Shown here in pieces: positions 3,680 to 52,021 of a DNA stretch of 64,000 nt. Position 1 is the first letter of the stretch. Every line of letters begins with the position of its first letter. The notes beneath the pieces were generated by a model that was given only the letters and a program-made list of their open reading frames with translations, was not told the DNA's origin and did not search any database. This DNA is from an uncultured delta proteobacterium. Lineage in GTDB: Bacteria > Desulfobacterota > Desulfomonilia > Desulfomonilales > Desulfomonilaceae. The stretch covers positions 1-64,000 of the forward strand of contig CAWJXP010000037.1 of assembly GCA_963846725.1 (NCBI GenBank). The letters run 5' to 3'. A program made the translations under genes and the position numbers.

Positions 3680-4502
3680 TTGCGGCAAACTCAAAAAGGG
3701 GTGGAATTGACCCAAGACAGGATTTCAGCAATCTCAGTTCGAAATGTTTCTGCAGGCTACTTCGGGGAAATCGTAATTCGAGATGTCTCTCTGGAAATTG
3801 CCAGGGGAGAAATTTTTGCTGTCATGGGCCGGTCCGGATGTGGAAAGACAACCTTGTTTCGAGCGATGGTGGGTTTGCTCAAACCGATCAGCGGAGAAAT
3901 ATATTACGGCGATCAGAAGATGGATCCTATAGATGAACAGACCTCATCCGGGGATATTGCGAAAACTTGGTGTCCTGTTTCAGTCCGGGGCTCTTTTCAG
4001 TTCAATGACAGTGGCTGAAAATGTTGCGTTGCCGCTTCGTCAATTCACCTCTCTGTCCAAAAACGTTATTGAGGAAATAGTGCGTCTCAAACTGGATTTG
4101 GTAGGTTTGCTGAATTCAGCCGAAAAAACACCATCGGAACTTAGTGGAGGAATGCAAAAGAGGGCGGCCCTGGCTAGAGCCATGGCGTTGGATCCGGAAA
4201 TTCTTTTTTTTGATGAGCCTTCCGCAGGGCTGGACCCTTTGACAAGCGCCGAACTTGACGAGACCATCCTCAGTATAAATTCATCTATGGGCACGACAAT
4301 CGTGCTCGTAACCCATGAACTTAGAAGCGCGTTTAGAGTGGCTGATCGAGCCATACTTCTAGACCCGATAGAAAAAACGGTTATTGGGGAGGGGTCTCCG
4401 GAGGAACTTAGGAACAACTCGTCAGACCCTAGGATTAGAGACTTCTTCAGGGGACGTGTCTCTCAAGACAAAATGTCATCAAAGAAGGGCGTCAATGATT
4501 AA
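3680..4502 (+). CDS. mlaF: MlaF-type ABC transporter ATP-binding protein, frameshifted around 3933-4018
   Basis: Walker A GRSGCGKTTL lies in ORF 3680-4018. The Q-loop GVLFQSGALF, signature LSGGMQKRAALARA and Walker B ILFFDEPSAGLD lie in ORF 3933-4502 in a different frame. Confidence 0.8.
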
Positions 4503-5540: not shown

Positions 5541-6263
5541 TTGGGCGCTTCTCTTTATTCCAGCTTGGCTGGCTCGCAAATCATGGTTCAGAATAGGTCA
5601 GAACTCGGGAATAGTCTGCAAACATATTCATTATATTTAACAGTTCGGGAAGACTTACGAAGCCTGCTGTTGGCAGCCTCAATTGTAGTGATTTCCGGAT
5701 GCGCTTTGTGGAACACGGAAGCTGTGGTTTTCCACGCTATAAATTATCCAGCCCCCAAAGCTAACAGAGAACACCGGATTCCGGAAACAATAATGGTTTA
5801 CCGTCTTCTCATGGATTCAAAGGTCGATAGTCATTATCTCGTAATTTCGAATCTAAAGGGCAATACCAGGAGTGTGAGCGGTTACGCCTGGGTTCAGGAT
5901 CCTTCCGAGATGCTCACCGAATTGGTAACCCGGGATCTGGAATCCTCCGGATTATTCGAAAAGGCCATTGATCAGACCAGCAATCTTCCATATAGATATG
6001 GGCTGGAGGGTCAATTGAAGAAATTTGAAGGAGTGATCAACAACGGGAAAGGCGCTGGATTGATTCAGGCTGAAGTCAGGTTAATAGATTTTGAACACCA
6101 ATCAACAGGCAATAGTGAACTAATTAAGAAACTCTACATTATAGAAGTTCCGAGCGTGGATACCAAGCCTGAGTCCATAGTGAAGGCGCTGGACAAAGCA
6201 TCGATGGATTTATCCGAAAAAATTAGAAATGATGTAGGAAAGATCCTGATAAGTAAAAACTGA
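5541..6263 (+). CDS. ABC-type transport auxiliary lipoprotein (PqiC/YmbA-like, ABC_trans_aux family). The true start is probably internal, near 5650.
   Basis: Signal peptide with lipobox VVISGC. It follows an MCE gene, as in mla/pqi operons. Confidence 0.55.
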   Translation: MGASLYSSLAGSQIMVQNRSELGNSLQTYSLYLTVREDLRSLLLAASIVVISGCALWNTEAVVFHAINYPAPKANREHRIPETIMVYRLLMDSKVDSHYLVISNLKGNTRSVSGYAWVQDPSEMLTELVTRDLESSGLFEKAIDQTSNLPYRYGLEGQLKKFEGVINNGKGAGLIQAEVRLIDFEHQSTGNSELIKKLYIIEVPSVDTKPESIVKALDKASMDLSEKIRNDVGKILISKN

Positions 6264-6387
6264 ATGCCAGAAAAATTTTAGACGTGGGTTCCATAATTTC
6301 GTCAAAGTTTTGACAACCTGGAATTGCTTGGCGCTTTAGTAGATGTTATTTAAAAAGGGGTTCTCAAGTTATAGCGTGAGGCGCAAA

Positions 6388-6741
6388 ATGAAACGCATTC
6401 TTGTCGTTGACGACGAAAGACACATTTGTGAATTGTATAGGATGGAACTGGAGGAAGAAGGTTACGCTGTTTCACTTGTTCATTCGGGTAATGACGCCCT
6501 GGAGGAGGTGGATCGCAATCCGCCTGATCTGATCGTTTTGGATATACAAATGCCCGGGATGGATGGGATTGAAACGTTGGAAAAGCTTCTCGGCATGGAC
6601 AAAGGGATTCCGGTCATCCTCAACACCGCTTACAGTCATTACAAGGACGATTTCACCACTTGGGGAGCGGACGCGTATGTTGTGAAATCGTCTGATACGT
6701 CCAGACTCAAAAAAGAAATAAAAAGGTTACTCGGAGCATGA
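6388..6741 (+). CDS. single-domain response regulator (CheY-like receiver)
   Basis: MKRILVVDDE...DLIVLDIQMPGMDG...K with the conserved Asp and Lys positions and no output domain. Its stop overlaps the glgC start (ATGA at 6738-6741). Confidence 0.85.
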   Translation: MKRILVVDDERHICELYRMELEEEGYAVSLVHSGNDALEEVDRNPPDLIVLDIQMPGMDGIETLEKLLGMDKGIPVILNTAYSHYKDDFTTWGADAYVVKSSDTSRLKKEIKRLLGA

Positions 6742-7982
6742 ACCTGAGAAACGAGATGAAAAGCACTTTGTGCATACTCATGGCTGGTGGAAAAGGCGAA
6801 CGCCTCTATCCTTTGACCAAGGCCAGAGCCAAACCTTCGGTTAGATTCGGCGGCATTTACAGAATCGTTGATTTTACTCTTTCTAACTGCCTCAATTCAG
6901 ATATACGAAGGATTTATGTGTTGACGCAGTATCGATCGGTTTCGCTGGATCGCCACATCAGGCTGGGGTGGAACATTTTCAATCACGAGTTGGGAGAATT
7001 TATCGAGTGTGTGCCGCCGCAGCAAAGAAATGTGGACCGTTGGTACCGCGGAACCGCTGACAGCCTCTACCAAAACATTCACATCCTGCAAAGAGAGCGG
7101 CCCAAGAGAGTTTTGATTTTGTCCGGAGATCATGTTTACAAAATGAACTATAACGACATGTTATCGTTCCATATCGAAAAAGGGGCTGATCTTACCGTAG
7201 CCGGTGTCGAGGCGCCGAGAGAAGAAGCCAAAGCGTTCGGTGTCATAGGCTGTGACGATGACTATCGGATCGTTGACTGGGAAGAAAAGCCTTCAGATCC
7301 CAAGCATGTTCCGGGAAAACCCGATAAATCATTTGTGTCCATGGGGGTCTATATCTTTGACACGAAAGCCCTGGTCAAAAACGTTATAGATGACGCCAAA
7401 AACTCGAACTCCTCCCACGACTTTGGTAAAGACATCGTGCGCAAAATGATAGAAACGAATAAAGTTTATGTTCATAGTTTCAAAGAAGTTAACAACGAAT
7501 CAAGCGCTTACTGGAGAGATATTGGAACTCTGGACGCTTATTGGCAGGCCAATATTGACCTGTGTTCAGCAACTCCATCGTTCAACCTTTATGATCAGGA
7601 GTGGCCGATCAGGACCTACCAGGAACAAGTCCCACCGGCAAAGATTATGGCCTCACACTTTTCTGAGCCATCCAGGCCTGCTGGAGTGGAAACCGTAAAT
7701 TGCATAATTTCGGGTGGATGCTTGGTTTCCGGGGCGCGGATAGTCCAATCGGTGCTTTCTCACGGGGTTGTTGTGGGTGAAGGTAGCGTGATTGAAGACT
7801 CAGTGCTTCTTGACAAATGCCGGATTGGAAAAGACGCCAGGATCAAAAAAGCAATCATAGACCATGACGTAAATATTCCTGATGGCGCAATTGTGGGCTA
7901 CGATCCTGACGAAGACAAGAAACGGTTTACCATCTCACCTGGCGGAGTTGTTGTAGTTCCGAAGGGTATCAGCCTGGATTGA
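6738..7982 (+). CDS. glgC: glucose-1-phosphate adenylyltransferase
   Basis: LMAGGKGERLYPLT nucleotide-binding motif, FGGIYRIVDF, and a C-terminal left-handed beta-helix region. Full-length similarity to GlgC. Confidence 0.9.
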   Translation: MNLRNEMKSTLCILMAGGKGERLYPLTKARAKPSVRFGGIYRIVDFTLSNCLNSDIRRIYVLTQYRSVSLDRHIRLGWNIFNHELGEFIECVPPQQRNVDRWYRGTADSLYQNIHILQRERPKRVLILSGDHVYKMNYNDMLSFHIEKGADLTVAGVEAPREEAKAFGVIGCDDDYRIVDWEEKPSDPKHVPGKPDKSFVSMGVYIFDTKALVKNVIDDAKNSNSSHDFGKDIVRKMIETNKVYVHSFKEVNNESSAYWRDIGTLDAYWQANIDLCSATPSFNLYDQEWPIRTYQEQVPPAKIMASHFSEPSRPAGVETVNCIISGGCLVSGARIVQSVLSHGVVVGEGSVIEDSVLLDKCRIGKDARIKKAIIDHDVNIPDGAIVGYDPDEDKKRFTISPGGVVVVPKGISLD

Positions 7983-15673: not shown

Positions 15674-17650
15674 ATGAGATACGCAGAGACCGGATTTAAT
15701 CTGGAAATAGATCTGGCCCGAGGAAGCATAGAGAGGGTGGCGACGGACCCAAAATTGACGGAACTTCATCTCGGGGGTTTGGGTACCAGCGTCAAGATGC
15801 ACTGGGATAGAGTTCCCCCTGAGACTAAAGCGTTTGATCCTGAAAATTTACTGATAATAAGCTCTGGTCTTCTCAACGGCACCCCGGCTTTTAGCGCTAA
15901 CCGTACCCTGGTTACTTTCGTTTCCCCGCAGTCGGATTTTCTGGCGTACCCCATGATGGGTGGATTCTTTGGCGCGGAATTGAAATATGCCGGTTATGAC
16001 AAAGTGGTCTTTCGCAATAAGTCCCCCAAGTTGGTCTATATATGGATAAAAAATGACAAAGTAGAAATCCGTGACGCCTCTCATTTGAAGGGCAAGGGGG
16101 CTCTTGAAACTCAAGATCTTATAAGGGAGGAACTGAACGAGCCGAGAGCCCAGGTGGCCGCTATTGGACTGGCGGGTGAAAATCGGGTTTTCACGGCTTC
16201 CATCGAGCAAAGCAGGTCTAGCGCCAGCAGACTTGGCGGAGGCGCAGTGATGGGCGACAAAAACATAAAGGCCGTCGCTGTTCGTGGAACCAAAGACCTT
16301 TATCTTGCCCGAGGCGACGAATTCATGGACCATATGGCTAAGGTGACGGAATATATAAATTTCCGAAACACAAACCCGATTCCGGACGTTATGACTATTT
16401 TGTCAGGGATTGGGTCGCCACAGGAAATGAAACATACCGATGAGAAGTGGCATACTGAAAACTTCATGTGGGGTAATGCACGCACCAGGAGAAGAGACTT
16501 CTGGAGCAAGCCGAATGAAGAGAATTGGACTACAACTCAATTAACCGCCATCCAACGCTTGATAAGCTGTTTCAACTGTCCACAACAGTGCGGAGCCCTG
16601 GTGTCATCCGAGGTGGCCGGCGGCAGGAAATTCATGATGAAATGCTTTGGAAAACTCACATATTCCATGGCAGCCTATGTGGACGATCTTCGCTTCAACT
16701 TTAAAATCCTTGAACGCGCCACTGAATATGGGGTGGACTCATTTTCCACTCCGCAGATCCTGGCATTCGCTGTTGAACTCTATGAAGCGGGGATTCTGAC
16801 TGACAAGGACTTCAAAGGATGTCCCTCTGATAAGGAGGGGAGATTTTTCTGGTTACTTGACCGGGTAGCCCGACGGGAAGGAATCGGAGATATTCTGGCT
16901 GACGGCGTTTATTTCGCGGCTCGAAAAATTGGCAACGGGGCGGAAAAATTTGATCATAATACGATCAAGAAACACGAGCAACTTCCCCTCAAGCTGGGAA
17001 TGTTGGATCCCATCTATTTCCTTATGTATTCCACGAACGAGAAGATAAGCATTACCCAAATTGAAGGGAATTTTCCACAGGCGGCTTTTCCCACGAGAGA
17101 ACAGAGAGAATCGTTTGTAAGGGATTGGCCCCAGGTTCCAAACGAAAAATTTAAACAATACGTTATGGATTGGGAACCAAGGGGAGACAACGCGATCCCG
17201 TATTTTCCAACTCCAGATATGTGCTGTGAAATTGTGGATTGGATGGAGATGCTGCACAATATTGATGACGCCCTGGGATTGTGCGCCGGGATGGCGTCAT
17301 TTTGTCTGAAGCCTCCATATCATATACACAACTACCCATTACTTATCTCGGCAGCGACGGGGATGGACCTGGATGAAGCTGGATTAAAAAAGATCGTCAA
17401 CAGGAGTCGGAACCTCCACCGTGCTTTCAACAACAAAAGAGGCATGAGGAGAGCTGATGAAAAGCCCCCTGAAGACCACTGGAAAAGAAGATTCCCTGAA
17501 CTTGAAGAACAACTTTTGTCTACATATTACAAATTTAAGGGATGGAATATGGACGGCATACCTACAAGAGAAAGATTGATGGAACTGGACCTGGGGTATG
17601 TAGCGGAAGAACTGGAAAAAAGGGGGATCTTGAAAGTTGGCCAAAATTAA
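15674..17650 (+). CDS. aor: aldehyde:ferredoxin oxidoreductase family (tungstopterin-dependent AOR), catalytic subunit
   Basis: The N-terminal AOR_N domain (LARGSIERV...GGLGTS) and the central and C-terminal AOR domains are recognisable. About 658 aa. Confidence 0.8.
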   Translation: MRYAETGFNLEIDLARGSIERVATDPKLTELHLGGLGTSVKMHWDRVPPETKAFDPENLLIISSGLLNGTPAFSANRTLVTFVSPQSDFLAYPMMGGFFGAELKYAGYDKVVFRNKSPKLVYIWIKNDKVEIRDASHLKGKGALETQDLIREELNEPRAQVAAIGLAGENRVFTASIEQSRSSASRLGGGAVMGDKNIKAVAVRGTKDLYLARGDEFMDHMAKVTEYINFRNTNPIPDVMTILSGIGSPQEMKHTDEKWHTENFMWGNARTRRRDFWSKPNEENWTTTQLTAIQRLISCFNCPQQCGALVSSEVAGGRKFMMKCFGKLTYSMAAYVDDLRFNFKILERATEYGVDSFSTPQILAFAVELYEAGILTDKDFKGCPSDKEGRFFWLLDRVARREGIGDILADGVYFAARKIGNGAEKFDHNTIKKHEQLPLKLGMLDPIYFLMYSTNEKISITQIEGNFPQAAFPTREQRESFVRDWPQVPNEKFKQYVMDWEPRGDNAIPYFPTPDMCCEIVDWMEMLHNIDDALGLCAGMASFCLKPPYHIHNYPLLISAATGMDLDEAGLKKIVNRSRNLHRAFNNKRGMRRADEKPPEDHWKRRFPELEEQLLSTYYKFKGWNMDGIPTRERLMELDLGYVAEELEKRGILKVGQN

Positions 17651-18182
17651 GAAGATAGTCAAGACAATCAAGATAGAAGCTGATAAATGCAACGGCTGTC
17701 GGGCGTGTGAGATCATCTGCTCAACGTATCATGCTACGCCCCAATACAGCAGCGTCAATCCGGCAAGGTCACGTATTCATGTGATCAGTCGTCGGCTGAA
17801 AAACATCTGGCTTCCGGTATTCGCTGGTGAGTATGCGCCGGCCGAATGTATGGGCAGAGACAAATACGTGATTGACGGAAAGGAATACGACGAGTGTTCC
17901 TTTTGCAGGGCTTCATGCCCATCCAGGGACCTTTTCAAGGAACCGGATTCGGGTCTTCCTCTCAAATGCGATATGTGTCAAAGCGATCCACCACTATCGA
18001 AACCGAAATGTGTTGAGAAGTGTCTCAACAATGTGCTGATCTATGAAGAAAGGGAAGAAGAAGTAGAGGAAGAGGTAAAGCTGGAGGACGTGGAGATAGG
18101 ACTGGAATCCATGATCGACAAGTATGGCATGCAGAAGATCGTTGATACCTTTTCCAGGATGACGGCGTCAAAAAGGGGCTAA
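17637..18182 (+). CDS. 4Fe-4S cluster electron-transfer subunit associated with AOR (AorA-like)
   Basis: Several Cys clusters (CNGCRACEIIC, CSFCRASCP, CDMCQ...C..KC). Overlaps the AOR stop by 14 nt. Confidence 0.7.
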   Translation: MAKIKKIVKTIKIEADKCNGCRACEIICSTYHATPQYSSVNPARSRIHVISRRLKNIWLPVFAGEYAPAECMGRDKYVIDGKEYDECSFCRASCPSRDLFKEPDSGLPLKCDMCQSDPPLSKPKCVEKCLNNVLIYEEREEEVEEEVKLEDVEIGLESMIDKYGMQKIVDTFSRMTASKRG

Positions 18183-18222
18183 CACGGTTCGCAGTTTCAC
18201 GTTTGTTCGAAAAGGGGTAGGA

Positions 18223-18915
18223 GTGAGCGTAAGAATCAGAAATAATTTATGGCAAGTCGGCGGAACAGGGCTCACTGATCCCTCGGACGCCGCCTCTTAC
18301 CTACTAAGGTTTGGCGACAAAGCAGTTCTCATAGATGCCGGAAGTGGGCGAGGTCAAGCGCAATTGATAAAAAACATTGCCGAATGCCTGGAACCCGACG
18401 CTCAACTCGAATACCTACTATTGACTCACTGTCACTTCGATCACACCGGTGGAGCCAACGCAGTGAGAGAGGAATACGGATGCCGAATCGTGGCTCATGA
18501 GTTGGATGCGACCTATCTCGAATCAGGCGACAACCGTGTGACTGCGGCAGCGCTCTATGGAGCCCGCCTCCGGCCATTTTCCATTGATATCAAATTACAG
18601 GGTCAAGAATCGAAACTCGCTATTGGAGACGGCGCCGTGACAGCCATTCACTGCCCGGGCCACTCTCCTGGTTCGGTCGTGTATACTACAGACATTGACG
18701 GTCAACTTGTTCTTTTTGGGCAAGACGCGCACGGTCCGATCCATTCGGAATTCCTTTCTGATGAAAAACAGTATCTGGATTCGTTGGCAAGACTTCTAAG
18801 CCTGGAGGCCGATCTTCTTCTCGAAGGCCATTTTGGCGTCATCGAAACAAAACAAGAGGTTCGAGAATTTATTGAGTCTTGCATAACCCCATCTCCGCAA
18901 CCATGTCGGTGCTAG
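18223..18915 (+). CDS. MBL-fold metallo-hydrolase, copy 1 (GTG start)
   Basis: HCHFDHTGG metal-binding motif, downstream His/Asp (HCPGHSPGS, EGHFG), and a C-terminal CITPSPQPCRC tail. Confidence 0.75.
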   Translation: MSVRIRNNLWQVGGTGLTDPSDAASYLLRFGDKAVLIDAGSGRGQAQLIKNIAECLEPDAQLEYLLLTHCHFDHTGGANAVREEYGCRIVAHELDATYLESGDNRVTAAALYGARLRPFSIDIKLQGQESKLAIGDGAVTAIHCPGHSPGSVVYTTDIDGQLVLFGQDAHGPIHSEFLSDEKQYLDSLARLLSLEADLLLEGHFGVIETKQEVREFIESCITPSPQPCRC

Positions 18916-19069
18916 TAACAAATCAGGTCGGCTAAAGGAACGGTTTGGCGTTTGTGGGACCGTCAGTGAACGTTCCGGATGATGGCATGTTAATGGGTAA
19001 GCCTTTGGTGTTGGTATTATCTCCGGTGAACTGAACAATATGATTGCGCCGAACAAATAGGAGTTCGGA

Positions 19070-19853
19070 GTGAGTGTAAGAATCAGGAACAATCTATGGC
19101 ACGTGGGCGGGAACGGCCTGACTGATCCATCTGACGCAGACATCTACCTTGTAAGGTTCGGCGACAAAGCTGCTCTCATAGACGCCGGAAGTGGTAGAGG
19201 TCACGCCCGATTGATAAAAAACATTGCCGAATGCCTGGAACCGAGCGTGCAACTCGAATACCTACTACTGACTCACTGTCACTTCGATCACACCGGTGGC
19301 GCCAAGGCAGTGAGAGACGAATACGGCTGCCGAATCGTGGCGCATGAGTTGGATGCGATCTATCTCGAATCAGGCGACAACCGTGTGATTGGAGCCTCCT
19401 GGTATGGGGCCCAACTCGAACCCTTCACCATAGACATCAAATTGCAGGGTCAGGAATCGAAACTTGACGTCGGCAGACGGCGCCGTGACAGCCATTCACT
19501 GCCCGGGCCACTCCCCTGGTTCGCTCGTGTTTACTACATGCGTTGACGGTGAACTCATTCTTTTCGGTCAGGACATCCACGGCCCGCTCCATTCGGAATT
19601 TCTGTCTGATGAAAAACAGTATCTGGATTCTTTGACAAGACTTATAAACCTGGATGCCGATCTTCTTCTCGAAGGCCATTTTGGCGTTATCGAGCCAAAA
19701 CACGAGGTTCGTCAATTTATCGAGTATTGGAGATCTCCGCTGGGAGTTTCTCATTACGCTATTTTGTACGCTCCGGATGGTTGGGTGGAAAGCAAAAAAA
19801 ATGAAACCACTTCCGGTCGTCAAGTGTCTGACACGCCAGAGGAAATTAAGTGA
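19070..19853 (+). CDS. MBL-fold metallo-hydrolase, copy 2. Tandem paralogue of copy 1 with a 1-nt insertion near 19466.
   Basis: Over most of its length it is an ~85-90% nucleotide-identical paralogue of 18223-18915. The reading frame breaks where copy 1 has ggagacggcgcc and copy 2 has ggcagacggcgcc. The C-terminal tail differs. Confidence 0.7.
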
Positions 19854-19976
19854 CATTCCAATTGTTGGTGGAAACGTTTCGGAAATTGGACTGCGCCAAT
19901 GGGCCAGGCTCTAGCCTTGCGGAATAGGCGACCCGGTATGAGCGCCGGCTATCACGGCGCTTATTGTTGAGGTTCT

Positions 19977-22900
19977 TGTGAGCAAATTAACAGAGACTAC
20001 CGGGGTTGAGCGACAGCGCCGGGCGTTGTGCGGTATCTGCCCGGCCGGATGCTGGGTCAAAGTGACCTATGATTCGGCAGGGAAAATGCTGTAAGGCAGA
20101 GCCCGACGAGGACTCGGAACTGGGTATGATCTGCGATCTGGGCCGGCAGTCGCCCCAGATAGTCTATTCGCCCGATCGGCTGCGTCATCCGTTGCTAAGG
20201 ACCGGTCCAAAGGGTGGTTATGAGTTTACACGCATTACGTGGGACGAGGCTTTTGACATCATCGTCTCCAGGCTCAACTCCATTAAGGAAACTTATGGGC
20301 CGGAAGCCGCCGCCATATACACGGGGAGAGGAAGTTTCGAGCAGTCTGAGTGCGATGTGTTCCAGCCTCAGGGAGTAGCGGTATCTTCGGCTTCGAGTGT
20401 CCTGTTCCCCTTTGGATCGCCCAATACCCTGGGCGTCGGCGCCCTTTGCTACGTATCTTTTGCGATGATCGCTCCGCACGTAACCGCGGGCGGAATGATG
20501 ATTAATATGTTCTCGGATCTGGAGAACGCCGATCTCATTGTGGTGTGGGGAGCTAATCCTGCTACCGACTGCCCACCTTTGGATTTTGCCCGCATCATGA
20601 AGGCCCGGCAGCGTGGCGCCGAGAGTTGTAGTTATCGATCCTCGTCGTACCGGAACGGCAATCGCGACCGACGCCGAGTGGATCCCAATTAGGCCGGGCA
20701 CAGACGGGGCCCTTGCGCTCGGCATGTGTCAGGTTCTCATCGAAGAGGAACTCTACGACGAGCGCTTTGTTAAGGACTGGACCCATGGTTTCGACGAATT
20801 CGCGAGGTACTGTCAGCACTTTCGCCCCGAGGTCGTGGAGACGATCACTAGCGTTCCTGCCGACACGATCCGGAGGTTAGCCAGGCGCATGGGCTCTGCA
20901 AGGGGAGCCTCTCCTGTCATGTACAGCGGGCTGGAATACAGTGACAGCGGAGTTCAGGCAATCAGGGCCGCAATGACGCTCTGGGCGCTGGCCGGTCAGA
21001 TTGACGTTCCGGGCGGTCGTTGTTTTACCATGCGGGAGAACCAATTCCCCATGAACAGGGAGGGGCATCTGCCCAACCCGGACGTGAGAAAGGCCCTCGG
21101 CCGAGATCGCTTTCCTGTATACAGCGCATACCGCGGGGAATCGCATGCCATTTGCCTTCCGGACGCGGTGTTGCACGGGAAACCTTATCCGATCAAATCA
21201 CTCATTATCGAAGGCGGTTCCATAATTACCGCCTGGCCCCAACCTCATATCTGGCGCGAGACACTGGCCGCGCTGGACTTTCTTGTATGCATAGATCGGT
21301 TTTTCACCGCCGATGCTGCGTATGCCGACCTCGTGCTTCCGGCGACGACATATTATGAAATTGAATCATACATGGTGTACGGCCCACTTTTCAGGATCAG
21401 GGAACGCGTCGTCGAGCCTGAGGGTGAAGCGCGCCACGGCTTCTTCATTCTTGCCGAATTGGCTAAGCGCCTGGGTTATGGGCATCTGTATCCTCAGACT
21501 GAGGAAGCGCTGCTGAGACATGCGCTGAAGCCCTCCGGGTTCACCCTGGAACAGGTAAGGGCAGCCGATGGCCTTGCGCGGGTTCCCACGGTGATGATGG
21601 AATACCGTAAGTGGGAAAAGGGCAGGCTGCGAGCCGATGGCCGACCCGGCTTCGAAACTCCTACAGGTAAGTTTGAGATTGCTTCGACAATCCTGGAGGA
21701 ACATGGCTACGACCCACTTCCGGTGTACACCGATCCTAAAGAGGGCCCCATGGCGCAACCAGCCCTTACGGAACAGTTTCCGCTGGTGTTTAGTTCCGGA
21801 TCCAGGGTCACCACTGATTTTCGTTCCCAATTCCACAATGTTCCCAATCTGGTGAAGGCACGACCGGAACCGACGGTCACCATGAATTCCCGGGATGCTC
21901 TGGACCGTAACATTGCCACCGGCGACCTCGTCGAGGTGGTCAGTCCACGGGGCAGCGTCAGGTTCAGGGCATACGTTACCGACAACATTATGCGGGGTGT
22001 CGTTGACGCGAGCATGGGTGGAGGCGGGCCTGTAGGACCGCAAGCCTGGCAAGACTGTAATGTCAACGATCTGACCGATTTAAAGCGATATGATCCTATC
22101 TCCGGGTTTCCAGTATACAAGGCTCTGCTGTGTGAAGCGCTCAAGATTGACGAAACTCGGCCGATAGCGGTCGGCGGTGGTTCCGAAGAACATCAGTCGT
22201 GGGCGGCGATGAAAAGTAGATCGCGAAGGGCTGCACGAAGCGAACGCATCTATCTGGACCATAACGCGACAACCCCTCTGGACCCGGAAGTCGCTAAAAC
22301 GGTCGCCGAATGCGCTGATCTATGTTTCGGTAACCCTTCCAGCATTCATGGATTCGGCGGCGAAGCCAGATTCATCGTTGAATCCGCGCGGCGGCAGGTA
22401 GCTCAATTGCTCAACTGCACAGCGAGAAGAATAGTTTTCACGGGTGGAGGTTCCGAATCCGACAACCTGGCGATCAAAGGAGTCGCCTTTGCTCGCCGCG
22501 GGATAGGTAACCACATTATTACAACCGCTATAGAGCATCCTGCTGTCCTGGAAGCATGCAAGTGGCTGGAAGGGCAGGGTTTTAGGGTAACGAGGCTTCC
22601 GGTGAGCATGGGAAGGATTAATCGATCCAGGTGATTTGGAAGCAGCGTTGACTGAGGACACTACATTGGTAAGCGTTATGACCGCAAACAATGAGACCGG
22701 AGCTGTTCAACCCATAGCCGAACTTACGCGGCTTGCCCGAAGACGTGGCGCCCTTTTCCACACAGACGCAGTGCAGGCGGTCGGTAAGATTCCCATCGAT
22801 GTTCAGGCATCTGGATGTAGACCTCCTTACGCTGTCGGGTCATAAAATCCACGGGCCCAAAGGCGTCGGCGCCCTGTATGTTCGTAATGGGGTCACGCTT

Positions 22901-23402
22901 GATCCACTGGTTCATGGTGGCAAACAAGAGCACGGACTACGAGCGGGAACGGAAAACACGCCAGGTATCGCAGGGCTGGGCAAGGCTGCTGAGCTTGCGA
23001 TTCAAAGATTCCCTGAAATGGATAGAATACGGAGCTCTAAGGGACCGGCTAGAGGAGGGGATCAGGGGAATAGTTCCGGGCGCCATACGTAACGGGCCAC
23101 TGGAGCAGCGGCTTCCTAATACGGTTAATCTCACATTACCCGGAATGCGCGGCGAGTCGGTTGTTCTGGCCCTGGATCATCTAGGCGTGGCTCTTTCTTC
23201 GGGGTCCGCCTGTAGGGCGGGCGCTCCGGAACCATCACACGCCCTGCTTGCCATGGGACTTTCTCCAGAGGAAGCCCATTGCGCTCTCAGATTTTCGCTG
23301 GGCCGGAACAACGCTAAAGATGAGATCGACCATACGATCAGCCTCATGGGAGAGATTGTTAGGGATACTGCCACTGGCGTTCGCTTCGTTCCTTGTCGCT
23401 AG
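19977..23402 (+). CDS. metallopterin (Mo/W bis-PGD)-dependent ergothioneine synthase-like fusion: N-terminal acetylene-hydratase-like molybdopterin oxidoreductase module fused in frame to a C-terminal NifS/IscS-type cysteine desulfurase. Disrupted by about 5 frame changes in this sequence.
   Basis: GTG start at 19977 gives [25 protein letters not shown] (Cx2Cx3C cluster, no Tat signal). MopB core pieces lie at 20069-20692 and 20613-22200 (VVIDPRRTG..., alignable with acetylene hydratase). The same frame reads without a stop into [16 protein letters not shown]...[11 protein letters not shown]...[17 protein letters not shown]...SSGSAC, a class-V aminotransferase cysteine desulfurase, spread over ORFs 22636, 22733 and 22878. 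Confidence 0.7.
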
Positions 23403-23461
23403 TCAATTCAGATAGTAATGAAGCGTTGAAAGACCAGGCACAGACTTCGTGATAGTGACTG

Positions 23462-24479
23462 TTGAAAAGGAGTGTATCCGTTATGCGCGCATCTTCTGCT
23501 TTAATGGGACTCACTGCCCCGAACCGGTTCGAGGAAGACGCAACCAACACAATGGCTGACGAAGTTCTGGCGGGTCTGAAAGCCCAACAGAAACGCATAC
23601 CTAGTAAGTATTTCTACGATGCCCGTGGATCGAAGCTCTTTGAACTTATATGCAATCTTCCTGAATATTATCCGACAAGAATTGAACTGACGGTTGCTCT
23701 GCGATCACGCAAAGGAAATCGTACGAGGGATAGGGCACGGCGATCTCGTAGAATTGGGATCCGGAGCAAACTGGAAAATCCGGACATTGCTCGATGCCCT
23801 GGGTCGCCAGCGCAGAACCAATGTCCGATATATGCCGGTGGATATGTGCGCTTCAGCTTTGACGAAAGCCACTGCCGAGCTGATAACCGTTTATCCTGAA
23901 CTAAATGTCAATGGAATCGTGGCGGATTTCACTTGCGACCTGCATTGCGTTCAATCCGACCGCCCCAAGCTTGTTCTGTTCTTCGGTAGCACCATCGGCA
24001 ACCTGAACAAACGGGAAGCGTCGTCTTTTCTGAAAAGTGTGGCAGCGACTCTCAATCCTGGCGATCGTTTTTTACTTGGGCTGGACATGGTTAAACCTAT
24101 CGACATCATTGAGGCTGCTTACAACGATTCGCAAAGCCTCACAGCCGAATTCAACAAGAATATATTGCTCGTCATCAATCGTGAGTTGCGGGCCAATTTT
24201 AACCCGGATTCCTTTGACCATGTCGCATTCTTTAATAGTGAAGAGGAACGCGTGGAAATGCATCTTCGAGCCAACAGGGACATTTGGGTCGAAGTCAAAG
24301 CAATTGCCGCGTCCTTCGTCCTGGAAAAAGGGGAAACTATTCGGACGGAGATTTGCTGCAAATTCACCCGGGATGGCGCAGAAAAGATGATTCGGGAGGC
24401 GGGGATGAAAGTGAGTCGTTGGTACTCTGATTCCAGTGGTTGGTTTTCACTGCTCGAAGCTGTCCCCAACCGGCCATGA
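23462..24479 (+). CDS. egtD: EgtD/EanA-type L-histidine N-alpha-methyltransferase (hercynine synthase). Frameshifted near 23694-23720.
   Basis: Near end-to-end similarity to EgtD: KYFYDARGSKLFELICNLPEYYPTR, VELGSGANWKIRTLLDAL, LFFGSTIGNL, LLGLDMVK, CCKFTRDG. The likely true start is the Met of MADEVLAGL, around 23552. Confidence 0.85.
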
Positions 24480-24768
24480 CTTCGCCGATTGGACAGTGTC
24501 TAATTAGGTCTGAGAGGATTAACCCCAGCCGTCATTAGCGCTGCAAACCAAAGTTATCCCGTCCAGGGAATAGCGGAAATAGACACATGCCCAAAAGGCT
24601 AAAAACGATATTATCTCAAATGTTTGCTATGTAATATTAGTTTGACTAGCCTATTTGTATATACCATTCAGTTAAATTAACTGGAGTATATTGTTTAAAA
24701 AAGCTTGACAACATCTCAATGGCATGTTTGTTTATGCGCCGAGATAATAACCCCTAATCCTTACTTTA

Positions 24769-24795
24769 GCCCGTTACGCAACGGGCATTTTTTTT
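24769..24795 (+). terminator. rho-independent terminator (GCCCGTT-acgc-AACGGGC followed by T8)
   Basis: A perfect 7-bp GC-rich stem with a 4-nt loop, followed by ATTTTTTTT, seen directly in the sequence. Confidence 0.6.
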
Positions 24796-25349: not shown

Positions 25350-27195
25350 TTAAGGCTTTGGCGCCGACGGCCTGGTTGAATCAGTCTCTTCAAAATATTC
25401 CCTGATCCGTTGGACGTCCCTCGAAGTAATACTTGGCAGGCCTAGAAGTTGGTCATCCGTCGCCTCTAACACTCCCTTAAGGCTTCCAAATGTTTTCAGC
25501 AAAATAATTCGTTTTTTTTCTCCAATTCCCGCAACGCTATCAAGACCTGAACGAAGGACTGTTTTATCCCTTCTTTTTGTGTGAAAAGAATGGGCGTATC
25601 GATGCGCTTCATCACGGATTTTCATTATCATCAAGAGACAGGAATCCCCTCTGGGGAATGTTAGAGGATTTTTTCTATTAGGCGCGAATATTTTATCTAT
25701 GTCCTCGGCTTCTCTAGCCTTGGCGATCGATATCAGCGCCGGTCGGCTTTCCTGGGGCAGAATTTGCAAGCCGGCCACCGCTGCGTTAAGTTGCGATTTT
25801 CCTCCATCGATGACCAGTAAATCTCCCAAGGGATCATCATCCTTGTGGCTTACTCGTCTTGAGATGACTTGATTGATCATGCCCGGATCATCCTGATTTT
25901 CAAAATTACGTATCTTGAACTTCCTATACGCCGATTTTAGAGGCTTGCCATCCAGAAAAGCGACCTTAACGCCTACAGGCTCAGATCCACTAATATTTGA
26001 AATATCATAGCATTCGATCAACCTGAGAGGCTCCGATATCTTTAGCTTGACAGCTAATCGATCCATGGCGTTTTCGGCTGATTTCTTTTGCTTGTCTCTT
26101 TCCAGGGCCATCCTCGCGTTTTTCAGGGCCAGTTCCACGAGCCGGGCCGCAGCTCCCCGTTGTCCCACCCTGATCTTCACTTTTGAGCCCCTTAAATCCG
26201 TTAGCCAGGACTCTATTATCTCCTGGCGCTCCAGCCTGGTTGGAACAATTATTTCTCCGGGTATCGCCGCTGAGTCGTGGTAAAACTGTTTAATTGAAGA
26301 GGTCAAGACTTCATGTTGTTCCAGAGTCGAACTTCTCACTATGTAAGATTCTTCCGAAATGAGATTCCCTTTTCTGAATGACAGAATCTCAACCACAAAG
26401 GTATTGGGCGGTTCTTCCAAAACAACCGCAACGTCTTCGTCCTTAAAATGGAAAAAAGAGACATTCTGTCTTTGTAGGGTTCGATCTACAGCGTATAAAC
26501 GGTCCCTGATTCTTGCCGCCTCTTCGAATTTCAAATTTTCAGAGGCCTCTTCCATTTCTCTTCTGAGCGCCTTTATCACTTCCTCATTTTTGCCTTCCAG
26601 CAGCAGGGTAATGTTTTCTACCATTCTCCGATATTCTTCAGGATCAACTTTTCCCATGCAGGGGCACAGGCATCTATTCATCTGACAATTTAGACATGGT
26701 CTCTTGGCTGTCGCGATCTGACGATCAGAACACTGCCTCAAGGGAAAAATCTTACGGATGAGGTGAAGGGTGATACGGGCGTCTCTGGCTGACGAAGTAC
26801 GGGCCAAAATATTTTTCGCCATCGGCTTTGATTTTCTGTGTTCTGATCAAGGTAAGCCTTGGATATTTGTGAGAAATATTTAGCCGCAATGAAAAAAAAG
26901 ACTTGTCATCCCTGAGATTAACATTGTATTTTGGTCGGTGTTCCTTGATAAGGTTGTTTTCGAGTAAAAGGGCTTCCTTTTCTGTATTAGTAAGAATAGT
27001 TCTTATATTAGTAATATGTTGAACCAGGAACCTTACCTTGGGTCTTTCGTCCCCACTCTTTGAGAAATAGTTGCGAACCCTGTTTCGAAGATTTGCGGCT
27101 TTACCCACATAAATAACCTTGCCGTTTCGGTCCTCCATCAGGTATACGCCCGGACTGGTGGGAAGATTCTTCAAAAAAGACTCGTCTATAGTCAT
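25350..27195 (-). CDS. uvrC: excinuclease ABC subunit C, split by a frame change near 26752-26822
   Basis: The N-terminal GIY-YIG domain ([25 protein letters not shown]) is in ORF 26752-27195. The Cys-rich linker, UvrBC-interaction region, RNaseH-like endonuclease domain and C-terminal HhH2 are in ORF 25350-26822. Confidence 0.85.
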
Positions 27196-29838: not shown

Positions 29839-30790
29839 ATGGCTGAGACTGAAAAAAAGAAGGTCATTAAACCAATTAAAAATTTCTCTTTAGAAGAATA
29901 TATTAGCTCCGGTCATCGCGCTTGCCAGGGTTGCGCGGAAGTTCTCGCCGTGAGGCATGTGTTGAAGGCGATAGGGCCGGACATGATACTGGCCATGGCA
30001 ACCGGATGCATGGAGATAATCTCTTCTCCCTACCCTCTGACTTCCTGGAATGTGCCATGGATTCACGTCGCGTTTGAAAACGCGGCTGCAGTCGCTTCCG
30101 GTGTTGAGTCAGGACTAAAAGCGCTCCGACGCAAAGGGACGGGTTCCCGACAAAGACATAACAATTGTGGCCATGGCAGGCGACGGCGGTACCACCGACA
30201 TAGGTTTCCAAGCGTTGTCAGGAATGATGGAGCGTGGTCATAAGGTCATATATGTTTGTGTGGATAATGAAGCCTATATGAACACCGGTATTCAGAGGTC
30301 ATCGTCGACTCCGTTCGGGGCAACCACCACAACATCGCCAGCAGGGAAAAACGCCCCCGCCGGCCAAATGACGTGGAAAAAAGACATGGTAGCCATAGCG
30401 GCGGCTCATGGAATCCCTTACACGGCAACAGCGTGCCCTTCCTTTTTCACTGATCTTCAAAAAAAGATTCAAAAGGCCAAGGAAACCCAAGGTCCTTCTT
30501 ATATCCACATTTTGTCTGTTTGCCCGACCGGATGGCGAATTCAGCCTAACAAGGCTATTGAATACGGGCAACTGGCTGTAGATTCAGGCGTTTTTCCACT
30601 TTACGAAGTTGAACAAGGAGTGTGGAAACTGAACCGCAAACCCAAAGAACTCAAACCAGTGTCTGAATACTTCAAGGGACAGGGACGGTATCGTCACCTG
30701 GATGAAAGCCTGACCATGGAGATTCAGGAGAAGATTAATAGTAGATGGACCAAGCTTCTTGATCAGTGCGGCGAGAAGACAGAGAAATAA
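29839..30790 (+). CDS. porB: pyruvate:ferredoxin oxidoreductase beta subunit (TPP-binding), frameshifted near 30130-30170
   Basis: ORF 29839-30243 carries HRACQGCAEVLAVRHVL...ATGCMEI. ORF 30167-30790 carries GDGGTTDIGFQALSGMMERGHKVIYVCVDNEAYMNTG (the TPP-binding fold). Confidence 0.85.
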
Positions 30791-44611: not shown

Positions 44612-45848
44612 ATGAAACGTCGTATCAAAAGAATTCTTGTCTACACTCACAATTCGATAGGCGTCGGCCACGCGTTCAGGACTTCAGCCGTAATAACCGG
44701 CATAAAAAAATGGCGTCCTGATATTGATTTTCTTGTAATATCAGGAACATCTGTCCCCCAAGTTTTCTTTCGGGAATGCATTGAAGTAATCAAATTACCC
44801 TCGGTGAAGCTGGACATAGATCGAAAAGACAGTCCCATGTGTTCCAGGTACCTTTCAGGCTTCGAACTCGAGAACATCTTTGATTTCCGTCAACGTCTGA
44901 TACTGGCGAGTTTCGATTTCCTGCAACCGGACGCACTCATAATCGAGCACAATATGACCGGCCAAATGAGTGAACTCATACCTCTGCTCATGAAAAAATG
45001 GATGAGAAAAGGAGGTCCGGTTGATTTTGCAGTGGCTCACATTTGCAGGGGCATAATGAAATGGGTTCCTTTGCTTAGGATTCCTTACCAGAATCCCAGA
45101 CATCGCTCAGAATCCATAAACATAGGGTCATTATACGATTTCATGTATGTGCTTGAAGACAGGGATGTTATTGATATAAACAAGGAATTTCTGGGAAGCG
45201 ATCCGGAGCTTGATAAAAAGATTCATTATCTCGGAAAGATAACAAATAGAACTTCGGAAGAACTTCCCGGCAGGGAAAAGTCGCTCGAAAGATTCGGACT
45301 CCCTGACAGGCCGCTGATAGTAATATCTCTGGGCCGTAATTCGAAAGCGATGGCCGTTACCCTGCGTATCCTGGATTTTATCGACAGGTTCAACCTTAAA
45401 TCCGCATATCAAATCGTGGTGGTTCTGAGATACTTATCTTGATCCGGAATCGAGTTCCACAATACTCTCTCATCCTCTAGGTAGTGGAGTCCGTTTCCTG
45501 GGGTTTACACTGGATCTCGTGGATCTGTTCAATCATGCCGAGCTTGTAATTTCCCGGGCTGGTTACAATACAGTCAATGAGATCCTTTTGACTGGAGTAA
45601 AAGCGGTTATAATCCCTGAAAGCCATGGATCCGGAGAGCAAGAACAACGAGCCCGGAGCGCTCTGGCGGACAACCTTGTCATAATGAATGAAGATGAGGT
45701 TCTTGAATCGGAATTCGGGCCCAGGATAATCAATTTTCTCGAGACCGGCTCACGAGCCGCTCCTTGTAAATTTGACAAATACGCCATAGGTAAACGTATC
45801 ATCAAAGATCTGGAAGCCTGGACGACCACTCCATTAGAGTCGCTGTGA
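44612..45848 (+). CDS. GT1/GT28-type (MurG-like fold) glycosyltransferase, frameshifted between 45442 and 45519
   Basis: N-terminal RILVYTHNSIGVGHAFRTSAV (GT-B N-domain glycine-rich motif) in ORF 44612-45442. The C-terminal donor-binding motif ELVISRAGYNTVNEIL..GV.AVIIP is in ORF 45519-45848. Confidence 0.6.
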
Positions 45849-49662: not shown

Positions 49663-52021
49663 TTAAATTTTGAGTGTATTTCCGTTTTGTCCAAATTTCT
49701 TTTGATTTTCTCTCAACCATGTTTCCATGCCGACCACAGCCTGGCCGATCGCTATACCGCCATCATTGACAGGGACATCACCGTGGCATAAAACGTCAAA
49801 GCCGTCCTTTTCAAGCCTGGCGGCTACCGTTTGAGCCAGTCGCTTGTTTTGAAAGCAGCCTCCAGTCAATCCCACTTTTCTATCAGGAATCTGATATTCT
49901 AATCTTCGAACCGTTTCCGCTATTAATTCCACGACTGAGTTGTGAAATCGCGCTGCCAGCTTTGAAGCCTCCACGCCGGCCAGCTTATCTTCAGCCAGAC
50001 GACGCGTCAATGAAGCCACGTCAGGCTCCAACAATTCCGAGTCGTTGAATCCTGTTTCGTAAAAATAGTTCTCATTTTCGTCGGCTATAGATTCAAGCCA
50101 CATCGCCGCCTGGCCCTCAAAAGTCACAGTGCGACTAAATCCCGAAATCGCCGCGGCCGCATCGAACAACCTGCCTGCGGACGATGTTAACGGGGTGTTT
50201 ATTCCCTTTTTCCAGGCTTCTAACCATAAACCAGTCTTAACCGAAGTGGCGCCGAACAGCTTGAGGGCCTCGGCCGGGATTGTCCCCCCATTGGATAGGG
50301 CGAGCAAACCGGCGGCGATTCTCAATGGCTCCCGAATCGCCATCTCGGCCCCGATCAGAGGGAATAGCCCAAGACGCGCGACACGTTGAAAGGATGATCT
50401 GTCCGCCAGTAAAAATTCCCCACCCCATATCGTTCCATCCTCTCCATAGCCAGTCCCATCAAAAACCACAAAAAGAGCCGGACCTTCCAGCCCGCTTTCG
50501 ACCATCAAGCTAACCGCATGAGCATGATGATGATAGACCGGAATTGACTGTTTGTCATGCTGTTGAGCCAACCGTGAACTGAAATAACCTGGATGGGGGT
50601 CGAAGGCTATTACCGATGGGGTCACCTCGAGATAATTTGTCAGTATATCAATTGATCGGGTGAAATGGTCCTGAGCTTCAGGCGATTCAAGATCTCCCAC
50701 GTGTGGACCTGGTGTTATCAAGCCACGGCTAACAATCGCGGGGGCGTTTTTCAGATCCGCTCCTACGCCAAGGATTGCCGGCATCTCCACGCCATCGCCA
50801 CCTGAAAACCTTGCGGATTCCTGAACCCTAAAACTCATAGGGACATAGCCCCTGGATCTTCTGAAAACAGAAGGCTTCCCTCTGATGACTCTTACAATTG
50901 AATCATCCGCTCTCAAGACGATTTGACGATCGTGGATGAGGAAGACGTCAGCGATTGAACCGAGTCGATCAAGGGCGTCGTCGTTTTCCGCAGCAATGGG
51001 TTCATCCGAATGGTTTCCTGACGTCATTACCAATGCCGAGAGGCAGTCACTTCCATTGAAGTCAGGGTGTTTGAACAACAAGTGATGAACTGGCGAATAT
51101 GGCAGCATTACGCCCAAAGAACCTACAAAAGGAGCCACTCCGGGCGCCACTCCAGCGCCATTGGACCTGAGCAGAACTATCGGGGCCATTGCGGAAGTGA
51201 GGGCATGTTCTTCATCTACGTCAATTTCACAGAGTTTTCGCGCTTCTTGAAGATCTCTCGTCATGATGGCGAAAGGCTTTTCAGGGCGGTTTTTAAGCTC
51301 TCTCAGCCTATTAACGGCTTTGTTGTTATACGCGTCAACCGCCAGATGAAAACCGCCAATTCCTTTTATAGCGGCGATCTTGCCTTGCTTCAGAATCTTT
51401 ATCGTTTCTGTGACCGGATCATTATCGATTACGTTTCCCTCTCTACCAATCAGTTCCATCCGAGGACCGCAAACAGGACATGAGTTAGTTTGTGAATGAA
51501 ACCGGCGATCAAGGGGATTTTCGTATTCTTTGCGGCACTCGTCGCACATGACGAAATCCGCCATGCTGGTTTCTGTCTCTATCGTACGGGAATGATCTGA
51601 CTACGGTAAACCGGGGACCACATAGCGTGCACGTGATAAAAGGAAACAGGTATCTTCTGTCTTGAGGGTCAAGAAGTTCGGAAACGCAGGCCGGGCAGGT
51701 AGCCACATCGGGCGGGATAGGTGTAATATCCCGCTGGGTTTTCAAGCTATCCTGAATCATGAAAGATGTTACGCCTGTCGCCGATATTTCAAACACTCGA
51801 TATTCGTCTATTCGGCCAGGAAAAGGTACGGACAGTGGCAACTCATCAACAAATCTTTCACATCGATCCTGATTTCCTTCCACCTCTACGTGAACTGTCC
51901 CTGTTGTGTTTACAACCCAACCCGACAACCCATGTTTGACGGCGAGTCTGTAGACGGTAGGTCTGAAACCTATTCCCTGCAGGATTCCCTTGAGGATGAT
52001 TTGCTTTCGAATGATTGGCAT
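49663..52021 (-). CDS. hypF: carbamoyltransferase HypF, frameshifted near 51509-51564
   Basis: ORF 51509-52021 has the acylphosphatase domain and first Zn finger (CPACVSE...CTLCGPRFT). ORF 49663-51564 has the second Zn finger (CDECRKEY...CPVCGP), the YrdC-like domain and the Kae1/HypF carbamoyltransferase domain. Confidence 0.85.

Follow-up and report, generated by a model that had tools for sequence, protein, structure and literature searches.

A 64,000-nt stretch of DNA (the window) very likely carries an ergothioneine operon of two genes, from an uncultured Desulfomonilaceae-like anaerobe, with reading-frame breaks that are mixed-strain consensus artefacts and not biological; this reading comes from sequence comparison. 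The first gene encodes a metallopterin-dependent ergothioneine synthase (MES) and the second EgtD, the L-histidine N-alpha-methyltransferase. The match of either gene is not due to chance, because the E-values are effectively zero. As an example of the already known anaerobic pathway the locus is ordinary, and its lineage had been listed when the MES family was published in 2022 (Beliaeva & Seebeck 2022, PMC9516567); Desulfomonile tiedjei stands in the Table S1 genome list of that work.

As given in the window, the MES frame is not intact but carries five +1 insertions, so that its segments lie in frames 1, 2, 3, 1, 2 and 3. By tblastn, six ORF segments join end to end to cover intact homologues from residue 1 to 1139, and deletion of five single bases yields a stop-free protein with 91.6% identity to protein P0001. 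Translation would begin at a GTG codon with GAGG 7 nt upstream. Pfam matches to Molybdopterin (PF00384), Molydop_binding (PF01568) and Aminotran_5 (PF00266) lie in register over the segments. The initial annotation had seen a MopB domain and a cysteine desulfurase fused in one frame, and this was borne out both by the full-length tiling and by ORF 20613-22634, in which the MopB module continues into the desulfurase without a stop. The interdomain linker contained neither a stop nor a start signal when inspected. Coordinates are collected in Table 1.

Table 1. Features of the MES-EgtD locus and its flanks, in window coordinates.
Feature	Position	Strand	Remarks
Aldehyde:ferredoxin oxidoreductase (AOR, 658 aa) and overlapping 4Fe-4S ferredoxin-like gene	15674..18182	+	
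First MBL-fold paralogue	18223..18915	+	230 aa, intact; clade-specific context
Second MBL-fold paralogue (MBL2)	19070..19853	+	directly upstream of MES; 260 aa in relatives
MES gene	19978..23402	+	1139 aa after removal of 5 extra bases
MES N-terminal bis-MGD (Mo/W) module	19978..22145	+	aa 1-722
MES Fe4S4 cysteines C18, C21, C25, C52	codons 20029, 20038, 20050, 20132	+	
MES extra base 1	20091	+	window CTGT, lineage A CTT, lineage B TGT
MES metal-ligand Cys157	codon 20447-20449	+	
MES extra base 2	20623	+	window GA, lineage A A, lineage B G
MES interdomain linker	22146..22226	+	about aa 723-749; variable, in frame
MES C-terminal PLP cysteine desulfurase module	22227..23402	+	
MES extra base 3	22606	+	window GCAT, lineage A CAT, lineage B GCA
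MES extra base 4	22808	+	window GGCAT, lineage A GGAT
MES PLP Lys955	22844-22846	+	
MES extra base 5	23034	+	window GC, lineage A C, lineage B G
MES persulfide Cys1077	23211-23213	+	
MES Cys1100	23280-23282	+	
MES C-terminal Cys1138	23394-23396	+	
EgtD	23483..24479	+	331 aa after removal of one extra base; PF10017
EgtD extra base	23690	+	window AC; L163 A; L165, L166 C
Terminator-like hairpin, then T-run	24769..24795	+	first strong one past EgtD

We compared the repaired MES with the enzyme of Caldithrix abyssi (CaMES), whose reference sequence was recovered from L033 with numbering that agrees with PMC9516567. The two proteins are alike in length (1139 vs 1136 aa), two-module architecture and co-encoded EgtD. 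Identity is 67% over the full length, 72% in the N-module and 63% in the C-module, but roughly 18% in the divergent linker. All nine residues named in PMC9516567 are conserved (CaMES Cys14/17/21/48, Cys153, Lys952, Cys1074, Cys1097 and Cys1135), so that the two enzymes share the Fe4S4 cysteines, the metal-ligand Cys, the PLP Lys and three conserved C-terminal cysteines. C18, C21, C25, C52 and C157 were invariant in alignment A1, and the metal-ligating Cys and PLP Lys that the initial annotation had wanted checked are present as Cys157 and Lys955. Unlike CaMES, the window protein comes from a Desulfomonilaceae-like host in non-vent metagenomes, has clade-specific AOR, ferredoxin and two MBL-fold genes upstream, and is encoded in a copy broken, artefact-like, by six single-base insertions.

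Among solved structures the N-module scores best against acetylene hydratase (2e7z; 222.5 bits, E = 9e-65, residues 14-661), ahead of thiosulfate reductase (2vpw, 208 bits) and FdhF (186 and 177 bits). As initially proposed, then, the module appears by these scores to be related to acetylene hydratase and DMSO reductase and not to be nested within the formate dehydrogenases. Like acetylene hydratase, it has an N-terminal Fe4S4 motif and a Cys as metal ligand, but the match is remote compared with that to MES; acetylene hydratase and the bis-MGD enzymes of the DMSO-reductase family lack a fused desulfurase and catalyze hydration or oxo-transfer rather than the formation of a C-S bond. Over its whole length the C-module aligns with class V desulfurases of the IscS/NifS type (1p3w, 3lvj, 5wt2; E about 1e-104), IscS being its best solved relative, and shares their PLP Lys and persulfide Cys. 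It falls under the equivalog cut-offs for both NifS (491.7 vs 530.75) and IscS (394.5 vs 643.2). IscS/NifS proteins stand alone and serve Fe-S, thio-cofactor and tRNA pathways, whereas the extra C-terminal Cys (in -PCR) is specific to MES.

The EgtD gene begins 80 nt past MES on the same strand, behind an AAGGAG ribosome-binding site. Once repaired, it scores 356.3 bits to TIGR03438, above the NCBI equivalog cut-off of 290.9, which together with the CaMES comparison upholds the original reading of the pair as the MES pathway. Against Mycobacterium EgtD (4pim, 7scf) it scores 250 bits to 4pim and keeps nine checked substrate-site residues (Y39, F47, Y56, T163, N166, Y206, T213, M252 and E282). 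In the histidine site Tyr56, Tyr206 and Ser284 contact the carboxylate and Asn166 the alpha-amino group, with Thr213 and Glu282 also taking part; unlike in the Mycobacterium enzyme, Ser284 is replaced by Cys, as in 47 of 90 EgtD matches from the fetched MES loci. The partner of EgtD is here MES, not EgtB or EanB. A survey of co-occurrence, called for at the outset, found the MES-EgtD pairing in most of 80 genome loci (EgtD lying inside the fetched MES flank), recurring across phyla. Scans of the whole 64-kb window for tRNAs and Rfam families gave no matches.

Homology, residue conservation and gene pairing are documented here, and the reaction mechanism is carried over to the window protein from the CaMES experiments. 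EgtD would trimethylate histidine to hercynine (TMH), and MES would perform the sulfur chemistry within one polypeptide. Its C-terminal PLP desulfurase would transfer cysteine sulfur to Cys1077 as a persulfide; from there the sulfur would reach the Mo/W bis-MGD centre, which Cys157 ligates, by way of the C-terminal Cys1138. A metal-sulfido species would then sulfurise the TMH imidazole at C2, yielding ergothioneine.

The frame breaks were examined by comparison with near-identical strains (L082, L165, L163 and L166; 97.4-98.6% nt), located by exact-protein look-ups of the intact neighbours AOR, POR-gamma and HypD. Exact look-ups of a 131-aa ORF and of MlaE gave no match, and a metagenome scan with the C-terminal 290 aa of MES found no match above 83% identity. 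MES is uninterrupted in L165 and L163 (full-length 1139 aa) and over the covered part in L082 and L166. EgtD is intact in L165 and L166 but split by an indel of its own in L163, and MBL2, UvrC and POR-beta are intact in the near-identical strains where covered. Five breaks in MES had been counted correctly at the start but placed at ORF boundaries rather than at the true sites, and the EgtD frame had been taken as unbroken, the +1 insertion within it having been missed. MBL2 too is broken in the window, by an extra base at 19474, and further extra bases lie beyond EgtD at 26795 and 30139.

Relative to these strains there are 15 single-nucleotide insertions and one single-nucleotide deletion specific to the window, and every window-specific coding frameshift seen is +1. 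None of the events lies in a homopolymer run, so a homopolymer-error model was discarded. At all nine coding insertion sites a one-base deletion gives the lineage-A allele, and at six of them deletion of a neighbouring base instead gives the allele of another sampled strain. The flanks of 23034 turn from B-like to A-like at that point. Between 19 and 21 kb, 84 window alleles match lineage A and 63 match lineage B; they fall into 77 runs, where independent draws would give 73, and private substitutions number only 4. We infer from these patterns, rather than from observation in reads, that reads of two strains occurring together were merged into a single consensus, which would have written both alleles of some SNPs in tandem as single-base insertions and so broken MES, EgtD, MBL2, uvrC and POR-beta. 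The breaks in MES are thus very probably assembly artefacts. Fine-scale recombination was rejected because the sites, at a median spacing of 7 nt, are unlinked. An independent third lineage, which would also interleave alleles, was rejected because 4 private changes stand against 63 on the A side in the same 2 kb. An intergenic bias of indels at 13-19 kb, considered as evidence of accurate sequence and real frameshifts, was dropped given the A/B mosaic and the tandem alleles.

Two observations count against the artefact model. Seven of the nine coding insertions fall in MBL2-MES-EgtD, which makes up roughly a quarter of the coding sequence compared; this significant concentration is also what relaxed selection on the operon predicts. 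Intergenic insertions (6 of 15) exceed a uniform error model, and at least one insertion, at 18186, is real, because it is common to lineage B.

The initial annotation had left the choice between a pseudogene and sequence errors, and the evidence points strongly to the latter. A true strain-specific pseudogene, with ergothioneine synthesis lost and frameshifts accumulating in MBL2, MES and EgtD under relaxed selection, would account for 7 frameshifts within 5.4 kb in the region densest in window-specific differences; since the genes are intact in sister strains, the loss would be a population polymorphism. We consider this improbable. Repaired frames give dN/dS of 0.07-0.23 (against L165, 0.128 for MES, 0.074 for EgtD and 0.083 for uvrC), with about 1,730 codons free of in-frame stops. 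Bacterial indels are in general deletion-biased, whereas all events here are insertions of one base, and the added base is mostly the alternative strain allele. The 'extra' substitutions are likewise nearly all lineage-B alleles (63 vs 4 private), and similar insertions break uvrC, POR-beta, an mlaF-like ABC ATPase gene, a glycosyltransferase and a CHAT protein. The raw frame breaks by themselves could also suggest that MopB and NifS are separate genes, or that programmed +1 ribosomal frameshifting decodes the frame changes, both hardly credible: the module junction lies inside a single open frame, and more than 100 homologues, near-identical strains included, are each one protein of about 1139 aa. 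Programmed frameshifting was rejected because the six break sites have no common motif and are absent from sister strains.

It is also conceivable, if highly unlikely, that the fusion joins a MopB enzyme to a dedicated desulfurase for some other job, such as sulfurising another heterocycle or maturing a cofactor, with EgtD a mere neighbour. The authors of PMC9516567 speculated on a role of related Mo enzymes in sulfurising other heterocycles, and the four homologues assayed there differed about 1000-fold in yield. Against this, the window enzyme keeps every mutationally tested residue of a full-length relative proven to make ergothioneine, and its EgtD neighbour is an equivalog-level match whose pairing with MES extends across phyla.

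The biological value of the locus is modest, since it extends the anaerobic MES route by a single further case. Public labels for MES proteins read "IscS/NifS cysteine desulfurase" or "anaerobic dehydrogenase". The expectation that generic pipelines would miss the pathway proved right: the source records name the proteins 'IscS subfamily cysteine desulfurase' or 'cysteine desulfurase NifS', and a model for MES is absent from NCBIfam. A genome scan confirmed relatives in at least 591 species representatives of GTDB, whereas the 2022 tally (PMC9516567) stood at 55 genomes. Because the proteins are mislabelled, lack a model and are so much more numerous than that tally, anaerobic ergothioneine capacity is widely under-reported. 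The apparent pseudogene also warns of mixed-strain consensus assemblies, in which SNPs written in tandem give rise to clustered +1 frameshifts resembling gene decay.

Upstream of MES, the AOR and ferredoxin-like genes were found in the closest clade only. The AOR had been read as a sign that the organism can supply a W/Mo-pterin, but it says nothing specific about bis-MGD supply. A functional tie of the AOR, ferredoxin and MBL genes to MES was not retained, its sole support being clade-level synteny. That the Desulfomonilaceae MES-EgtD pair is part of a larger conserved unit, with the tungsten-type AOR, the ferredoxin and two tandem MBL-fold hydrolases, is very doubtful; in such a unit the MBL-fold proteins or the ferredoxin could act in the chemistry of ergothioneine or of persulfides, for instance on an intermediate that carries a thiol or persulfide, or as electron donors for the MES Fe4S4 cluster.

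The fusion of the molybdopterin (MopB) and NifS modules is genuine, its junction lying within a single uninterrupted ORF. Pfam searches of the ORF listing placed PF00384, PF01568 and the first 122 positions of PF00266 in order in one frame of ORF 20613–22634, bearing out the fusion proposed in the initial annotation; PF00384 occurs as consecutive parts in ORFs 20069–20692 and 20613–22634, and later parts of PF00266 fall in three further ORFs (Table). In tblastn with 1139-aa queries, residues 1–1139 of intact homologues tiled onto 19978–23402 in frames 1, 2, 3, 1, 2, 3. The breaks, put earlier at about five, number five, each a single surplus base relative to the syntenic relative L001. Deleting these bases gave a 1139-aa metallopterin-dependent ergothioneine synthase (MES) without a stop codon, 91.6% identical to the database homologue P0001.

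We recovered the characterised MES of Caldithrix abyssi (CaMES, 1136 aa) from a MAG of that species (L033:34–3444); its Cys14, Cys17 and Cys21 match the numbering in Beliaeva & Seebeck 2022 (PMC9516567) exactly. Window MES is 67% identical to CaMES overall, 72% in the N-module, 63% in the C-module and 18% in the linker. All nine residues compared are kept: the Fe4S4 ligands Cys14/17/21/48 as C18, C21, C25 and C52, the metal ligand Cys153 as C157, the PLP lysine Lys952 as K955, and Cys1074, Cys1097 and Cys1135 as C1077, C1100 and C1138. In CaMES, C153, K952, C1074 and C1135 are essential by mutation, and sulfur transfer is intramolecular (PMC9516567). Among solved structures, the N-module best matched acetylene hydratase (2e7z, 9e-65), with thiosulfate reductase and formate dehydrogenases behind, and the C-module matched IscS (~1e-104).

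The gene 3' of MES is EgtD (PF10017), likewise split across two frames in the ORF listing. Without surplus base 23690 it spans 23483–24479 (331 aa) and scores 356 bits on TIGR03438, above the cut-off of 290.9. Mycobacterial EgtD residues Y39, F47, Y56, T163, N166, Y206, T213, M252 and E282 are kept, but Ser284 is Cys. The fetched loci contain 90 EgtD matches, of which 47 share this change. A strong terminator-like hairpin lies 3' of EgtD (24769–24795); the same scan found none between MES and EgtD. Judged by sequence, from full-length CaMES homology, the conserved residues and the adjoining EgtD, the initial annotation was correct in both its observation and its reading as an MES plus EgtD pathway. 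The mechanism is carried over from CaMES, the window proteins themselves displaying the sequence prerequisites alone. EgtD would produce hercynine (TMH), and the desulfurase module would form a persulfide on Cys1077, its sulfur being relayed via Cys1138 to a Mo/W centre ligated by Cys157. TMH would attack the metal(VI)=S species through C2 of its imidazole; ergothioneine release would leave metal(IV), which the next persulfide would re-sulfurise.

Near-identical strains were retrieved by exact-protein look-up of intact neighbouring genes. MES is intact at 1139 aa in L165 and L163 and uninterrupted over the covered part in L082 (330 aa) and L166 (760 aa). EgtD is intact at 331 aa in L165 and L166, and split in L163 by that strain's own indel. 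The 260-aa MBL2 (the MBL-fold gene directly 5' of MES), 614-aa UvrC and 316-aa POR-beta are intact in sister strains where covered. Multiple alignment of the window with these strains revealed 15 window-specific 1-nt insertions versus one such deletion (19014), with 0 of the 15 insertions in a homopolymer context. Alleles were compared in local alignments with further relatives added. The window has CTGT at 20091, where lineage A (L165, L163, L082) has CTT and lineage B (L164, L167, L168) has TGT; L166 also belongs to lineage A. Similarly, the window has GA versus A and G at 20623, GCAT versus CAT and GCA at 22606, AAG versus AG and AA at 26795, and AC at 23690, with A in L163 and C in L165 and L166. 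At 23034 it has GC versus C and G, and the flanks change from B-like to A-like. The alignments thus present the insertions as two alleles of one strain polymorphism set in tandem. Those in uvrC and POR-beta are of the same type as those in MES, and both core genes are split.

At sites differing between lineages the window switches site by site. For 19–21 kb, 84 sites carry the A-allele and 63 the B-allele; these form 77 runs, where independent draws would give 73 (z = 0.7), and informative sites lie a median of 7 nt apart; for 21–24.5 kb, 249 A-alleles and 38 B-alleles fell in 71 runs versus 66.9 expected. The mosaic covers 17700–38300, is strongest at 18500–24500, and nearly lacks private substitutions. 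A window-specific 10-nt insertion, AGGATTAACC (24515–24524, intergenic 3' of EgtD), sits beside a short lineage-B allele run. Were the window a real third lineage, its private branch should approach the 63 A-side changes, and just 4 were seen in 19–21 kb; recombination between lineages predicts tracts of linked alleles, and the window alternates per site. Per-position consensus of mixed reads would explain mosaic and tandem alleles together, suggesting that the contig merges co-occurring strains into one chimeric consensus.

The initial annotation had left the choice between pseudogene and sequence errors. Breaks are concentrated in MBL2-MES-EgtD, in step with the local B-allele fraction; this concentration is also the one feature that a true pseudogene would predict, and it leaves that reading some weight. 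After frame repair there were no in-frame stops in MES, EgtD, MBL2, uvrC or POR-beta, and dN/dS relative to L165 was 0.128, 0.074, 0.227, 0.083 and 0, respectively. Tandem alleles, mosaic and dN/dS together indicate that the MES breaks are very probably sequence error; a pseudogene we regard as unlikely. Since the contig is apparently chimeric, any further "pseudogenes" called in this assembly deserve distrust. Among relatives, public MAGs with long contigs have indels of their own, so frameshifted MES and EgtD calls are common in databases. EgtD is also split in L001/L002 (about 14203) and L163 (about 5752–6748), and in L163 insertions and deletions cluster densely in its HdrD-like and NarI-like genes, in the stretch matching window 31.1–32.7 kb.

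Features, window-specific insertions and sister-strain coverage, in window coordinates
Feature	Position	Remarks
PF00266 positions 132–192	ORF 22636–22845	Pfam
PF00266 positions 187–269	ORF 22733–23092	Pfam
PF00266 positions 283–369	ORF 22878–23402	Pfam
MBL-fold paralogues	18223–18915, 19070–19853	~84% nt identity to each other; HCHFDH motif; also in L002–L014
1-nt insertions, intergenic	15272, 15550, 18186, 18937, 18972, 24584	
1-nt insertion, MBL2	19474	
1-nt insertions, MES	20091, 20623, 22606, 22808, 23034	
1-nt insertion, EgtD	23690	
1-nt insertion, uvrC	26795	gene 25350–27195, minus strand
1-nt insertion, POR-beta	30139	gene 29839–30790
Strain L082	13054–20945	97.5% nt identity
Strain L165	roughly 17.7–38.3 kb	98.6% nt identity
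Strain L163	roughly 17.7 kb to near 36.3 kb	98.2% nt identity
Strain L166	21115 to roughly 38.3 kb	97.4% nt identity
mlaF-like ABC ATPase	3680–4502	+1 break; Walker A frame 2, remainder frame 3
Glyco_tran_28_C glycosyltransferase	extra base 45427	+1 break; 411 aa in strain L169
CHAT-domain protein	extra base 53993	+1 break; 663 aa in L169
hypF	49663–52021	minus strand; split between first and second zinc-finger motifs

MES has more than 6,000 matches among database proteins; the top 120 (P0001–P0120), on which composition was judged, are nearly all fusions of ~1100–1140 aa. As had been anticipated, generic annotation misses the pathway: source names among the listed matches include "IscS subfamily cysteine desulfurase", "cysteine desulfurase NifS" and "anaerobic selenocysteine-containing dehydrogenase", and NCBIfam has no MES model, its sole model above cut-off being the generic IscS subfamily. 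A genome scan confirmed relatives in at least 591 GTDB species representatives, among them Desulfomonilaceae, anammox Planctomycetota, Nitrospirota, Chloroflexota, and methanogenic and other archaea. In most of the 80 loci retained, EgtD falls inside the flank fetched around MES. The system was first described in 2022 (PMC9516567), with Desulfomonile tiedjei already listed in Table S1 of that paper; the window locus is a further member.

The aldehyde:ferredoxin oxidoreductase (AOR), ferredoxin and tandem MBL-fold pair 5' of MES are an arrangement limited to the closest clade: of the 80 loci, 10 have the MBL pair directly 5' and 7–8 have AOR-ferredoxin farther 5'. This synteny is shared ancestry and no evidence of functional coupling. 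Neither MBL paralogue reached a curated NCBIfam cut-off. MES has GC 0.56 and GC3 0.58 (N-module 0.62), versus GC3 of about 0.47–0.55 in flanking genes, a mild offset that could reflect older horizontal acquisition.

No tRNA, tmRNA or Rfam family was found at threshold across 1–64000. The window-specific coding frameshifts found were +1 in every case. At hypF, L169 shows no net indel and its gene call likewise lacks the N-terminus; the split may hence be common to both, through either a genuine frameshift or the same error in each. The hypC, hypD and hypE genes that follow are intact.
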